DNA of 64,000 bases from Promethearchaeota archaeon (lineage in GTDB: Archaea > Asgardarchaeota > Lokiarchaeia > Sigyniarchaeales > SOKP01). The first letter of the stretch is position 1, and each line of letters opens with the position of its first letter. Location: positions 11,081-75,080 of the forward strand of contig JAGXNO010000012.1 in NCBI GenBank assembly GCA_019894975.1. The letters are read 5' to 3'. The position numbers and the translations under genes were made by a program. Below the pieces are notes generated by a model. The model was not told the DNA's origin. It saw nothing but the letters and a program-made list of their open reading frames with translations, and did no database searches. This document shows positions 1,612-16,182 of the stretch, in pieces.

Positions 1612-1723
1612 GCGGGAATTGCCAAGTCTGGTAAAGGCGCTGGACTTAGATATTACTTCAATATCTGCTGGACTCAGAATTCAGTCTCGTAGGAGTTCGG
1701 GAGTTCAAATCTCCCTTCCCGCA
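1612..1723 (+). tRNA. tRNA-Leu (most likely CAG) with 28-nt non-canonical intron, probably at position 32/33 (1646-1673)
   Basis: Acceptor stem GCGGGAA/TTCCCGC plus discriminator A; D-arm GCC..GGC; anticodon stem CTGGA/TTCAG; long variable arm CTC-GTAG-GAG; T-arm GGGAG-TTCAAAT-CTCCC; BHB-like motif (helix CTGG/CTGG, two ACT bulges, 8-bp intron hairpin); T-run after the gene. Confidence 0.92.
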
Positions 1724-13079: not shown

Positions 13080-14063
13080 ATGGAAAATCTTCCCAATACA
13101 TATCGTCTTAAGCAGGTACTGAAAAATTATTTTGAAGAGGTTGATGGTATTTTAGGTGTAGCGATATGTGATAGAGACGGCTTTATTATTGCTTCGGAAT
13201 TCAAGGAAGGTGATGATGAAGAATCTGACTCCGTTATTGGAGCAATGTCAGCAATTCTTGATACTTATATTGATAGAATTAAAAGTGAATTTGGAACGAA
13301 GGGAAGTTTCTTCAATATAACTATGATGGGGGATAAAAAATTTGCTTATTGTTCACAAGGCCCATTATCTATTTTAACAACAGTTGCAGATCAATCTACA
13401 AGTGATATAGAGTTAAAAGTATATTCTGAGCATATAGCAGGAAAAGTTGAATTGATTTTAGATGGTAACAAGGATGTTTCCCCTAAGATCCCCGAAATTA
13501 TTAGAGCGTTGGCAAAAACAAGGGCAGGATCCCTTCAAAACATGGCAGGAGAGTATTCTCATAAACTTATTTTAACAGGTGATTTTCAAGTAGGGAAGTC
13601 TTCCCTTATTAGAAGGTTTGTAAAGAATACGTTTGAAAAAGATTATATTTCGACTATTGGAGTGCAATTATCGAAGAAAATAGTTGATTTAACAGACAAA
13701 ATAAAGATGAACTTTATCTTATGGGATATAGGTGGTCAAATTAGACAAATGGCACCTTATCGCACTAAATTCTATAATGGTGCTAATGCTGCTTTTATCG
13801 TTATCGACAGAACTAGAGAGGACACTATGAGTAGTGTAAAAAAGTGGTATGAGGATATTAAGAATTCAATCCCAAAGAATATTCCTATTGTTTTGGTTGG
13901 AAATAAATCAGATTTAGTAGCTGAGATTAAAATTAGTGAGGAGGATATTAAGAAAGTAGCTCAAGATTTTGGTTTTCATTATATCCTTACTAGTGCTAAA
14001 TCAGGAGAAAATGTTAATGATGCATTTTTATATATTGCTTATCGAGTTATAGAAACACTATAA
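13080..14063 (+). CDS. Roadblock/LC7 domain fused to a Rab-like small GTPase
   Basis: N-terminal roadblock (VDGILGVAICDRDGFIIAS...GAMSA); G1 GDFQVGKSS, G2 YISTIG, G3 WDIGGQ, G4 NKSD, G5 TSAK. Confidence 0.9.
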   Translation: MENLPNTYRLKQVLKNYFEEVDGILGVAICDRDGFIIASEFKEGDDEESDSVIGAMSAILDTYIDRIKSEFGTKGSFFNITMMGDKKFAYCSQGPLSILTTVADQSTSDIELKVYSEHIAGKVELILDGNKDVSPKIPEIIRALAKTRAGSLQNMAGEYSHKLILTGDFQVGKSSLIRRFVKNTFEKDYISTIGVQLSKKIVDLTDKIKMNFILWDIGGQIRQMAPYRTKFYNGANAAFIVIDRTREDTMSSVKKWYEDIKNSIPKNIPIVLVGNKSDLVAEIKISEEDIKKVAQDFGFHYILTSAKSGENVNDAFLYIAYRVIETL

Positions 14064-14162
14064 CTCTAATGATCCAAACTTTTTTATGAATTCTCTTTCT
14101 TTTAAATAATTGAAGTATAAATTGAAATAAAATATGAAATTAACAAAAGGAGGTTAAAAAAA

Positions 14163-15083
14163 ATAGTTCTAAAGGTAGATTGGCACGATGTGCTCACCAC
14201 TTGAAACGCTGCTGGATATGTTATGGGATTTTCAATAAAAGAACTTACCTATAAAGGAAGATATCTTGTGTATCTCAGTGAAAAAGAATTAACAGGCCCT
14301 TGGTTCAGCTTTACTTTAGAAGGGAAAAAAATAGGTTCTATTCCAGTCATTCTAAGAAATATCGAACCTACTCCAATATATAAAATGATTAATACACGAA
14401 AAGGAACTGCTATAAGTAGAATTACCTTGGATTTCAGTATCACAGAATATCTTAAGAAATTAACTGAAGAAAATAAATTGAAATCGATTCCGATTAAAAA
14501 GGAAGAATACGTTCGTTTATATAAAGATATCTTTAATCCTCCCAAAGTACCCTATATTAGTACGTTCTTTACTTTGAAAAACATTTCAGATTATGCTATG
14601 AAAAATTTCTCAATGTACTTCGTCTTAGATTTTGATATAAATGGACTTGACGGATTTGATAATGATTTATCAGGTTATGATGCGGAAAATGATGTGATTT
14701 ATCAATATGATGACACAGGATTGTATGGTGGATTTTCCCCTATTTCTAAATCAACAAATTACGAATCATGTCTAACACATGATTTTAAAATTGATAATCA
14801 AAATTTAAACCTTTCAAATAGTTTATTTGAAGGTTCAGGAGAAATCTTATCTGCTTTACAAATTGAATTCAAGACGCTTGAACCTAACCAATCTTTTCAG
14901 ACTGCAATGGTTATTTCTGGGGGATTTAGCAAAGAAGAATTAATTGAAAATATTAAAGAAGGAAAAAACAACGCTATGAAACACTTACATCAAGTAAACA
15001 GATCAATCAAGTCAGAACAACGTAATCTTCAGGAGGAAGCTTTTATAAAAATCAATCTTCAGCAAGCGGTTGATTGTAAATAA
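14163..15083 (+). CDS. Candidate selenoprotein of unknown function (Sec14 at UGA 14202-14204), beta-sandwich-like, penultimate Cys; ORF-track call 14223-15083 is the downstream part
   Basis: Frame upstream of ATG 14223 reads ATA-VLKVDWHDVLTT-TGA-NAAGYV-M; AGGAGG SD at 14148-14153, 9 nt before ATA 14163; SECIS-like element right after the stop. Confidence 0.7.
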
Positions 15084-15087
15084 TAAA

Positions 15088-15162
15088 AATCCACAATAAT
15101 GAATCACTTAAAAAAATCCTATTGGATAGTTATTTGATGAAAACCCTGCTCGGGTGTGGATT
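15088..15162 (+). ncRNA. Eukaryote-like (Loki-type) SECIS element, form 2, in the 3' UTR
   Basis: Helix I AATCCACA (15088-95)/TGTGGATT (15155-62); core ATGA (15099-102) opposite GA (15139-40); 9-position helix II ATCACTTAA/TTATTTGAT (7 WC pairs); unpaired AAAA (15112-15); apical minihelix ATCC-TATT-GGAT. Confidence 0.72.
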
Positions 15163-15191
15163 GAAAAAATAAAGAAAAAAAAATTTGATTT

Positions 15192-15908
15192 TTAAATCTT
15201 TTTGTGCGACTTTAGATCAAAATAGGCATCCTCTAGAACATCCAGATACTCAATCAACGCTTTATTCGCAATAGATCTTTGTTCATAAGCTAATTTAATA
15301 ACGTTCAAGAGATATTTAGGAAATATAAGATCCATGTAAAAGTCAGAAATAAGAGCATAGTATTCAATATTGTTCTCATCTCTAAAAACTTTAACCAAAC
15401 GATTATCCCACAATAATTTCAACGCTCCATATGCGTCCTTAACTCCTTAGGCTCTTAGTTTATCAAGATCTTGTCGTGTTACAATTGCAGTTCTTAATAA
15501 TCGCAATGTCTCATAAACTTCAGGATTTATTAAAATATCAACAACACTTAGGTTATCTTCCGTTGTGGGTTGATAATTTTGAAAAAATTTCTGAACTTCG
15601 GCAATATATTCCTTTGCAAATTGAGTTGGTAAACCAGAGTTTATAGGATCTGCGAATAATTTTGCAGGAGGAACTCTAAGCATATATATATCTTTTGTCA
15701 AGACAATCAATTCTGATGGTAGTCCTTTTACCGAGACCTGTTTTATCATATCTCTTTTCAATAGTTCCATGAGAGTAGCTTCTATATCTACAAATCCCTC
15801 AATATATCTATCTCTTAGCCATATTGTCAATTCTGATTTAGTCATAACACCTCTATCCCTTAAGTTATCTATTATCATTTGTTTAATCTCATCTTGATAA
15901 ATGAGAGC
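15192..15908 (-). pseudogene. 5'-truncated, nonsense-interrupted paralog of the longin-wHTH protein at 56620-57747
   Basis: ORFs 15447-15878 and 15192-15422 are in one frame separated by a single TAA (..KLRA*GVKD..); aligns with the C-terminal half of the 56620 protein (LPT..A..Y..EV..FF..Y.P..ED.L; NP..Y; FP.Y); N-terminal domain absent. Confidence 0.8.
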
Positions 15909-16182
15909 TTTTATTGTGATAGATAGAACTCGACAGGATAATTTAAAAAGTGTAGATCTATGGCATAATGAAATAAAAAAATATGTAGGGAAGGAAATAA
16001 GTATTATTTTAGTAGGGAATAAATCTGATGTGATTGAAAATATTGAAATTAGTGAAGTAAGTATAAAAATGATTGCTGAAGAGAAAGGATTTCATTATAT
16101 CCTTACTAGTGCGAAGACGGGAGAAAATGTTCATGATTTATTTCTCTATATCGCATATAAGTTTTTGGAAGGAGTTTCGTAG
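15907..16182 (+). pseudogene. C-terminal fragment of a Rab-like small GTPase
   Basis: AFIVIDRTR...LVGNKSD...FHYILTSAKTGENV..LFLYIAY closely matches the 13080 GTPase; G1-G3 missing. Confidence 0.82.

Follow-up and report, generated by a model that had tools for sequence, protein, structure and literature searches.

Does the gene that public annotation places at 14223-15083 of this DNA really begin there, or does its reading frame extend upstream through a UGA codon that is read as selenocysteine (Sec)? The question arises in a 64,000-nucleotide stretch (the window) of contig JAGXNO010000012.1, from a Promethearchaeota archaeon of the class Lokiarchaeia. As annotated, the gene encodes a hypothetical protein of 286 amino acids (aa), and more than 400 database entries begin likewise after the UGA, at the next methionine. 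The initial annotation of the window, made from the letters alone, had proposed a longer gene: a 306-aa selenoprotein of an unrecognised family, followed in its 3' untranslated region (UTR) by a eukaryote-like selenocysteine insertion sequence (SECIS). Our comparative analysis makes it highly likely that positions 14163-15083 encode such a Sec-containing protein. The features of the gene are listed below; all feature coordinates of the initial annotation were re-read in 13400-15500 and matched.

14148-14153, + strand: Shine-Dalgarno sequence (SD), AGGAGG (direct read)
14163-14165, + strand: putative non-canonical start codon AUA, 9 nucleotides (nt) past the SD (homology, frame)
14163-15083, + strand: full candidate selenoprotein gene, 306 codons plus TAA (codon periodicity, full-length alignment with Cys forms, AlphaFold2 model)
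14202-14204, + strand: in-frame TGA, read here as Sec14 (invariance; aligns with Cys or TGA of homologs)
15075-15077, + strand: codon of Cys305, the penultimate residue (invariant column in a 16-sequence alignment)
15081-15083, + strand: terminal stop codon TAA (direct read)

The open frame runs from the ATA through the TGA to the annotated ATG at 14223 as I-V-L-K-V-D-W-H-D-V-L-T-T-[TGA]-N-A-A-G-Y-V-M; the residues around Sec14 are ...WHDVLTT-U-NAAGYVMGFSIK, and the annotated product starts with MGFSIK... at Met21. The gene was found in 33 of 36 sampled congeners, and our comparison of the upstream region covers 34 loci, the window's own and those of congeners (loci are coded with L-numbers and genomes with G-numbers, the window genome being G000). 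Protein identity among the congener genes is 72-85%, and the layout is the same in all 34 loci: an SD, 8-11 nt, ATA or ATT, 12 sense codons (11 in L058), TGA, six sense codons and ATG. Codon 14 is TGA in every locus, and the terminal stop varies by species among TAA, TAG and TGA.

The residues on the 5' side of the UGA, which the initial annotation had read as part of the protein, are conserved at the codon level. Nucleotide diversity is highest at the third codon position and lowest at the second on either side of the TGA. Synonymous and nonsynonymous pairs number 1617 and 1746 in frame before the TGA (ratio 0.93) and 558 and 696 after it (0.80); the two wrong frames give 241/2818 and 31/2967 on the 5' side and 211/913 and 57/946 on the 3' side (0.01-0.23). 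The Thr codon that adjoins the TGA on its 5' side is represented among congeners by all of ACT, ACC, ACA and ACG. The same sequence was also found in contigs from RNA libraries (metatranscriptomes) of three studies, which are 95-97% identical to the window and run unbroken from 14120-14158 through the SD, ATA, TGA and ATG into the open reading frame (ORF), with no difference reported at the TGA; one contig spans 15000-15200. The support from these contigs is weak, because DNA carry-over is possible.

Homologs at 22-30% identity are present in other families of the same order (f2, f3 and f4). In f2, nine loci (25-30% identical), three of them from single-contig genomes, read M-D-I-F-I-D-Y-E-T-I-C-I-N-C-Q-E-K-G-Y-S-F-G-Y, and eight of the nine start with ATG (L035 is without ATG at that position). 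Their start Met aligns with the window's ATA, the second Cys of their CxxC with its TGA and a Phe with Met21; thus, the homologs with Cys at the UGA column that the initial annotation had pointed to do exist, and they have ATG at the ATA column. The distance from ATA to the Sec codon, 13 codons (12 in L058), equals that from the ATG to the aligned Cys in the Cys forms. Four loci from f4 and f3 read ...F-D-Y-V-C-T-I-[TGA]-K-K-S-G..., that is, CxxU with TGA in the Sec column. In an exhaustive profile search, the match starts at profile position 1 for Cys forms of 316-322 aa, and no earlier than position 21 for entries of 286-289 aa annotated from after the TGA.

A 16-sequence alignment (A2), which covers 22-86% identity, has two invariant columns of particular interest, column 14 (Sec or Cys) and Cys305, together with a D-F-D motif. 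The penultimate Cys, singled out early on as a potential partner of Sec14, is therefore a family-wide feature. More distant family members carry CxxCxxC, and in this genus the first Cys of the motif is replaced by L, F, V, I, M or Y. The early statement that the protein has no CxxU motif consequently stands for this genus and fails for other lineages, which have CxxU or CxxC. The family appears to have been ancestrally CxxC or CxxU at its N-terminal hairpin, with this genus having kept only the Sec and the C-terminal Cys. The genomes with the f4 CxxU form have tRNA-Sec above cut-off, and the genomes of the Cys-form homologs are Sec users too.

A SECIS begins 4 nt past the TAA stop codon, about 885 nt downstream of UGA codon 14. 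Its parts are as follows.

15088-15162, + strand: SECIS, eukaryote-like Loki type II (fold, covariation, covariance models)
15088-15095 with 15155-15162, + strand: helix I (direct read, RNAfold)
15099-15102 and 15139-15140, + strand: AUGA and GA of the putative kink-turn core (direct read)
15103-15111 with 15130-15138, + strand: helix II, nine positions with two mismatches
15116-15127, + strand: ministem, with an AAAA bulge before it (direct read, RNAfold)
15144-15154, + strand: CCC-TGCTC-GGG hairpin on the 3' side (direct read)

The minimum-free-energy structure from RNAfold is the one described: helix I, an unpaired AAUAAUGA, helix II with a 2x2 mismatch, the AAAA bulge, the ministem, the GA, the CCC/GGG hairpin and the closing strand of helix I. 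Coordinates and fold thus agree with the form-2 layout that had been read by eye after the TAA. Its folding energy of -19 kcal/mol (z = -3.3) is equalled by none of 200 shuffled sequences. Across the 33 congeners, 88% of cells are paired, compared with 23-48% when the partners are slid; eight pairs are compensatory, and covariation at the observed level was reached in none of 500 shuffles. These congeners show no variation at the G and final A of AUGA or at either nucleotide of GA, and the U is replaced by G in two. The A-run bulge has about 4-6 nt, the ministem covaries among congeners, and the layout matches that of the selD SECIS of the genus. Five known SECIS of G000 (three from VhuD and two from selD genes) have the same architecture, including the hairpin between the GA and the closing strand of helix I, and the selD SECIS also have an AAA bulge and a ministem. 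The CCC-TGCTC-GGG hairpin, first regarded as an extra, is thus part of every known SECIS in the genome. More broadly, all SECIS of the genus, of type I as well as type II (VhuD, selD, Prx-like and HdrA; contigs C109, C103, C110, C108 and C92 of G000, and congeners), carry a small G+C-rich hairpin that turns the element into a three-way junction.

We used three covariance models. R1 was built solely from the elements of the candidate family; apart from the candidate's own element, its matches in the 3.9-Mb genome were a VhuD SECIS (50.5 bits, E 1.6e-6) and, at 39.8 bits, the SECIS of a two-TGA peroxiredoxin-like gene, and among the known loci it also matched a second VhuD SECIS at 25 bits. R3 was built from 11 group-a VhuD SECIS, picked by protein homology and two in-frame TGAs, and holds no sequence of the candidate family. 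Its alignment was guided by R1, because MAFFT of two VhuD SECIS groups left their 3' halves out of structural register; the guidance touches the alignment alone. Run with filters off, R3 scored the window element at 51.9 bits (E 6.6e-10), and the next match in the 64 kb reached 16 bits. Its six genome-wide matches were the candidate, two VhuD, two of HdrA type and a small ORF with a TGA. In every one of the 33 congener loci, a single R3 match lies just past the stop codon of this gene (27.7-59.7 bits), whereas none of nine Cys-form loci has a match at E < 1. The structure noticed in the initial annotation therefore both covaries and is recognised by a model trained on VhuD. R2, built from selD (type II) SECIS only, gave sub-threshold matches in 16 congener loci (15.7-22.4 bits), all on this element; Cys-form loci gave it no match. 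In the f4 Sec forms L033 and L039, an AUGA...GA element, again with this 3' hairpin, overlaps the last part of the coding sequence. At the gathering threshold, Rfam reported no SECIS family in the window, its single match there being a tRNA; this blank is expected, because existing SECIS models miss the Loki form (Mariotti 2016, PMC4989117).

The Sec machinery of the genome is essentially complete. The tRNA-Sec, SelB, SelD and SepSecS genes to which the initial annotation had drawn attention were all found, and a PSTK-like gene besides. A cluster on contig C44 contains tRNA-Sec (62.6 bits), SepSecS (387 bits) and SelB (248 bits, above cut-off); the PSTK-like gene is full length and scores 125 bits, below the equivalog cut-off of 290.5 bits. 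Two tandem selD genes (G000:C108:10686-12773) each have one in-frame TGA and their own type-II SECIS, and G000 has three VhuD genes with two TGAs each. The tandem selD pair is present in 17 of 19 genomes searched, counting G000, and selD is single-copy in the other two, in agreement with the multiple selD genes reported in Lokiarchaeia (Huang 2024, PMC11227280). Elsewhere in G000 (C98:164648-164994; L141:1224-1582, + strand) lies an ORF of 105 aa with a transmembrane helix, an acidic run and C-D-I-F-[TGA] (CxxxU), whose stop codon is overlapped by a type-I Loki SECIS of textbook form (R3, 57.8 bits). This ORF may encode a further selenoprotein that has gone unrecognised; among congeners it was found, again with TGA, in only 1 of the 14 others searched (2 of 15 including G000).

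Where translation of the 306-aa form begins is a question of its own. The initial annotation placed an AGGAGG 9 nt before ATA 14163 and saw no SD before ATG 14223, and both are borne out by direct reading. A GGAGG lies 8-11 nt on the 5' side of the ATA or ATT in 27 of 29 parsed loci, with a degenerate AGAGG in the other two. The start codon position is ATA in 31 and ATT in 3 of the 34 loci, and ATG, GTG or TTG in none; between the SD and the TGA we found no congener-conserved ATG, GTG or TTG, the window's GTG at 14190 being GTA, GTT or ATT elsewhere. Insertions and deletions in the spacer between SD and ATA have lengths that are not multiples of three, which indicates that coding begins at the ATA. 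Judged by SD spacing, frame and homology, initiation at AUA 14163 is probable. The result is an AUA start (AUU in three loci) behind a strong SD throughout the genus, where other-family homologs have AUG at the aligned position.

Four congeners carry an insertion directly on the 3' side of the TGA, of 32 nt (L023), 28 nt (L029), 29 nt (L030) and 31 nt (L032).

G024:C43:89948-89982, - strand: insertion in L023
G030:C29:41153-41183, - strand: insertion in L029
G022:C1:1600384-1600415, + strand: insertion in L030
G031:C292:1733-1766, + strand: insertion in L032

A pattern scan found a single copy of the insertion per genome in all four, which rules out a dispersed repeat. Among the matches listed from a scan of a 185,579-species collection, most were chance bacterial ones, and the readable loci gave the genome of L023 only. 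The four genes are scattered on the gene tree, which requires at least four changes. All four insertions have the geometry of an archaeal bulge-helix-bulge (BHB) motif: a 4-bp CUUG/CAAG helix, AAU 3' of one strand and AAA (AUA in L030) 3' of the other, with a covarying hairpin of the insertion as the arm. Symmetric cuts after nucleotide 1 or 2 of both bulges excise the exact insertion and restore ...A-T-[U]-N-x-x-G-Y-V-M-G-F-S; L030 in addition regains the conserved Asn if the cut follows nucleotide 2. Pairing in the outer exon-exon helix is imperfect, and in predicted folds the second bulge is part of an internal loop. Two other readings were dropped: CUUC/GAAG as the central helix, with which the retained nucleotides would break the frame, and translational bypassing over the insertion, for which there are no matching take-off and landing codons. 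BHB introns in archaea reside in tRNA and rRNA and, rarely, in mRNA, as in crenarchaeal cbf5. The insertions resemble these in the 4-bp central helix and the 3-nt bulge on each strand; they differ in lying within a protein-coding gene, at the Sec codon, and in the imperfect outer helix. We lean towards regarding them as a spliced mRNA mini-intron at the Sec codon.

Several observations weigh against a 306-aa selenoprotein, and most of them lend some substance to another explanation. To our knowledge, neither AUA nor AUU is an established archaeal initiator; ATG 14223 is kept throughout the genus (34 of 34 loci), where distant homologs have Phe; and the 28-32 nt insertion breaks the frame between TGA and ATG in four congeners unless it is removed from the RNA. 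These three points would fit two cistrons: a conserved regulatory upstream ORF of 13 codons that ends at a genuine UGA stop, and a 286-aa protein translated from ATG 14223 independently or by reinitiation. Such an arrangement is nonetheless very unlikely. The six codons from TGA to ATG are under same-frame coding selection and align with the GY segment of stop-free homologs; a genuine stop would be expected to vary between TAA, TAG and TGA, like the terminal one; and a conserved SECIS is found behind all TGA-form genes and behind none of the Cys forms. In addition, ATG 14223 lacks an SD, and cuts at the BHB geometry restore the frame exactly in the insertion-bearing genes, which keep a full-scoring SECIS (R3, 38-50 bits). 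A shorter, Sec-less isoform from ATG 14223 may still be made alongside the selenoprotein.

On the one hand, the evidence for Sec14 comes from nucleic acids and models, helix II of the window element is weakened to seven of nine positions paired (congeners have eight or nine perfect pairs), and the selD-trained R2 scores this element weakly (17.2 bits, E 0.16). From these three points one could suppose that the UGA is read through with a near-cognate Cys or Trp, or that the short Sec-less isoform is the main product, the 3' element serving transcript stability or termination. On the other hand, the VhuD-only R3 recognises that element at E 6.6e-10, R1 retrieves solely the 3' ends of selenoprotein genes in 3.9 Mb, the genome has the Sec machinery, and alternation of Sec and Cys at one column is the classic signature of a selenoprotein; we regard readthrough without Sec, or a mainly short product, as highly improbable. 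A further adverse observation is that the f4 homolog L044 (G039:C36) has AUGU...CA at the end of its coding sequence instead of AUGA...GA, and keeps the in-frame TGA. Finally, TGT or TGC becomes TGA by a single base change and all public annotations start at Met21, as they would if a recent nonsense mutation or an assembly error had truncated an ordinary Cys gene and left its N-terminus pseudogenised. The comparative data already refute this explanation, whose chance of being right is negligible: the TGA is present in all 34 independently assembled loci, at the protein identities given above, and in RNA-library contigs of relatives, and the sequence on its 5' side is under purifying selection. 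Thus, Sec at codon 14 of a 306-aa protein is the reading that we retain.

What kind of protein would carry this Sec? The AlphaFold2 model (U modelled as C, 28-row alignment) reached a predicted local distance difference test score (pLDDT) of 91.3 and a predicted template modelling score of 0.89. It has an N-terminal beta-hairpin with residue 14 at the turn (pLDDT of about 63), a large beta-sandwich and C-terminal helices. Foldseek (E about 3e-9) and an exhaustive VIA search returned the same closest matches, the latter over model residues 1-280 with Z-scores of 18.6-20.0 and a root-mean-square deviation of 2.6-3.1 A across 215-236 aligned residues. The closest structures are the non-catalytic N-terminal supersandwich domains of GH15 glucoamylase/glucodextranase, GH94 phosphorylases, cyclic glucan synthase and GH116, so that the mutarotase- or glucoamylase-N-like fold first guessed from the sequence is the one that structure searches return. 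The N-domains of GH15 (1lf6, 1ulv) and of GH94/GH116 (2cqs, 8bou, 8rf9, 7w2t) share the fold and have a similar helical linker after the sandwich; they differ in that identity is 12-15% and in that the candidate is stand-alone, cytoplasmic by appearance, and has Sec and Cys at its termini. The (alpha/alpha)6 catalytic domain is absent, the chain ending at residue 306 after a short helical tail, and Pfam and NCBIfam searches with Sec-form, Cys-form and distant members gave no family, including GH94_b-supersand or a related one. With no catalytic domain and no Pfam match, the protein shares the domain fold and is not a GH15 or GH94 enzyme; the common fold shows no carbohydrate function. Nor is it a thioredoxin fold, as it is an all-beta supersandwich with helices, and the CxxU of f4 sits on the N-terminal beta-hairpin. 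The central part of the protein recurs in large PKD-, CARDB- or dockerin-bearing proteins, and a protein atlas gave archaeal hypothetical clusters only, with GH94-supersandwich clusters as a weak lead.

Animal thioredoxin reductase has a Sec/Cys redox centre, GCUG, on its flexible C-terminal end. The candidate is similar in that its Sec and a possible partner Cys lie at the ends of the chain and not in the core fold, an arrangement suggestive of a mobile selenylsulfide couple; in contrast to thioredoxin reductase, the residues occupy opposite termini, separated by 291 positions, and the core is not that of a flavoenzyme. The function may be a redox one. We would put the chances of a Sec14/Cys305 selenylsulfide couple a little short of even.

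The gene upstream, noted from the outset as a roadblock GTPase gene on the same strand, is a Ras-family fusion that is conserved in congeners.

13080-14063, + strand: roadblock/LC7-like domain fused to a Ras-family GTPase, 327 aa (Pfam Ras, 1.2e-38)

Its Robl_LC7 match reached 20.6 bits, below the 23-bit cut-off. A roadblock-Ras fusion lies directly upstream on the same strand in all six f2 loci tested and in all 11 congeners checked, and an unrelated ORF is upstream in the two f4 loci tested. A complex prediction for the roadblock GTPase with the 286-aa form scored 0.01, which gives no answer and counts neither for nor against binding. The odds of a functional link between the selenoprotein and this GTPase, which the conserved gene order suggests, appear evenly balanced. 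Further along the window, a 93-aa ORF (15901-16182, + strand), about 700 nt downstream of the SECIS and about 820 nt from the stop codon of the selenoprotein gene, matches the C-terminal half of Ras only (profile positions 75-159) and may be a truncated or frame-shifted second small-GTPase gene. A 112-nt tRNA at 1612-1723 (+ strand) is matched by Rfam (45 bits) and not listed by ARAGORN; it presumably contains an intron.

Asgard selenoproteins have been catalogued more than once. A de novo search described five Asgard/Loki families (Mariotti 2016, PMC4989117), a later study listed seven, identified via representatives of previously reported families (Huang 2024, PMC11227280), and a 2026 review gives the same seven for archaea. 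The candidate lies outside these seven, as the initial annotation had surmised. It has no model among the many curated selenoprotein families of NCBIfam, and our literature search found the family unreported as a selenoprotein and in none of the published Asgard catalogues that could be searched. It is thus very probably an eighth, Asgard-specific selenoprotein family with an unusual fold. It escaped notice because annotated frames end at the UGA and open again at the next Met.

The mechanism, a UGA with a Loki SECIS, is the one already known. As in the VhuD/FrhD, HdrA, Prx-like, SelD and VhuU genes (PMC4989117; PMC11227280), the UGA aligns with a Cys of homologs and the SECIS lies just past the stop codon. 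The element shares with known Loki SECIS the AUGA...GA core, the roughly 9-bp helix II and the A-run that tops it; its ministem resembles that of selD, and covariance models recognise it and the VhuD and Prx-like SECIS mutually. Its fold, a beta-supersandwich and not of the thioredoxin, Fe-S or hydrogenase kind, sets the protein apart from the seven families, as does its Sec at residue 14, and unlike known Asgard selenoproteins it would have an AUA start and has, in this genus, lost the vicinal Cys of CxxU.

We propose the following scheme. The ribosome would start at AUA, 9 nt past a strong SD; the UGA at codon 14 would be decoded as Sec under the direction of the type-II Loki SECIS in the 3' UTR, and translation would terminate at TAA 15081. 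The predicted product is a stand-alone beta-supersandwich with a helical tail, with Sec14 at the turn of its N-terminal hairpin and a Cys second from its C-terminus. The two residues, which would derive from an ancestral CxxC or CxxU hairpin and a C-terminal Cys, may form a redox couple on a scaffold of the binding type and might work with the upstream GTPase. In its fullest form, this would be a selenoprotein family specific to Asgard archaea, the first of its kind: a redox-switchable beta-supersandwich, partnered with a eukaryote-like roadblock-Ras GTPase and gated by an AUA start, by Sec recoding through a eukaryote-like SECIS and, in some species, by a BHB mini-intron removed from the mRNA precisely at the Sec codon. 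That complete picture is unlikely to hold in every part; if it were true, expression would be gated at three unusual levels.

The Asgard selenoproteome catalogues thus have a gap, in which a lineage-specific family was overlooked. The family would place Sec in a fold without an earlier link to selenium, and it provides a new, well-sampled set of SECIS from 34 species, with covariation, in which the small 3' hairpin emerges as a constant part of the SECIS in this genus. The conserved AUA start and the candidate mRNA BHB intron at the Sec codon both bear on open questions in archaeal gene expression. Because the gene is paired with a roadblock-Ras GTPase, a "eukaryotic signature" protein of Asgard archaea, a possible redox input into GTPase modules becomes testable.

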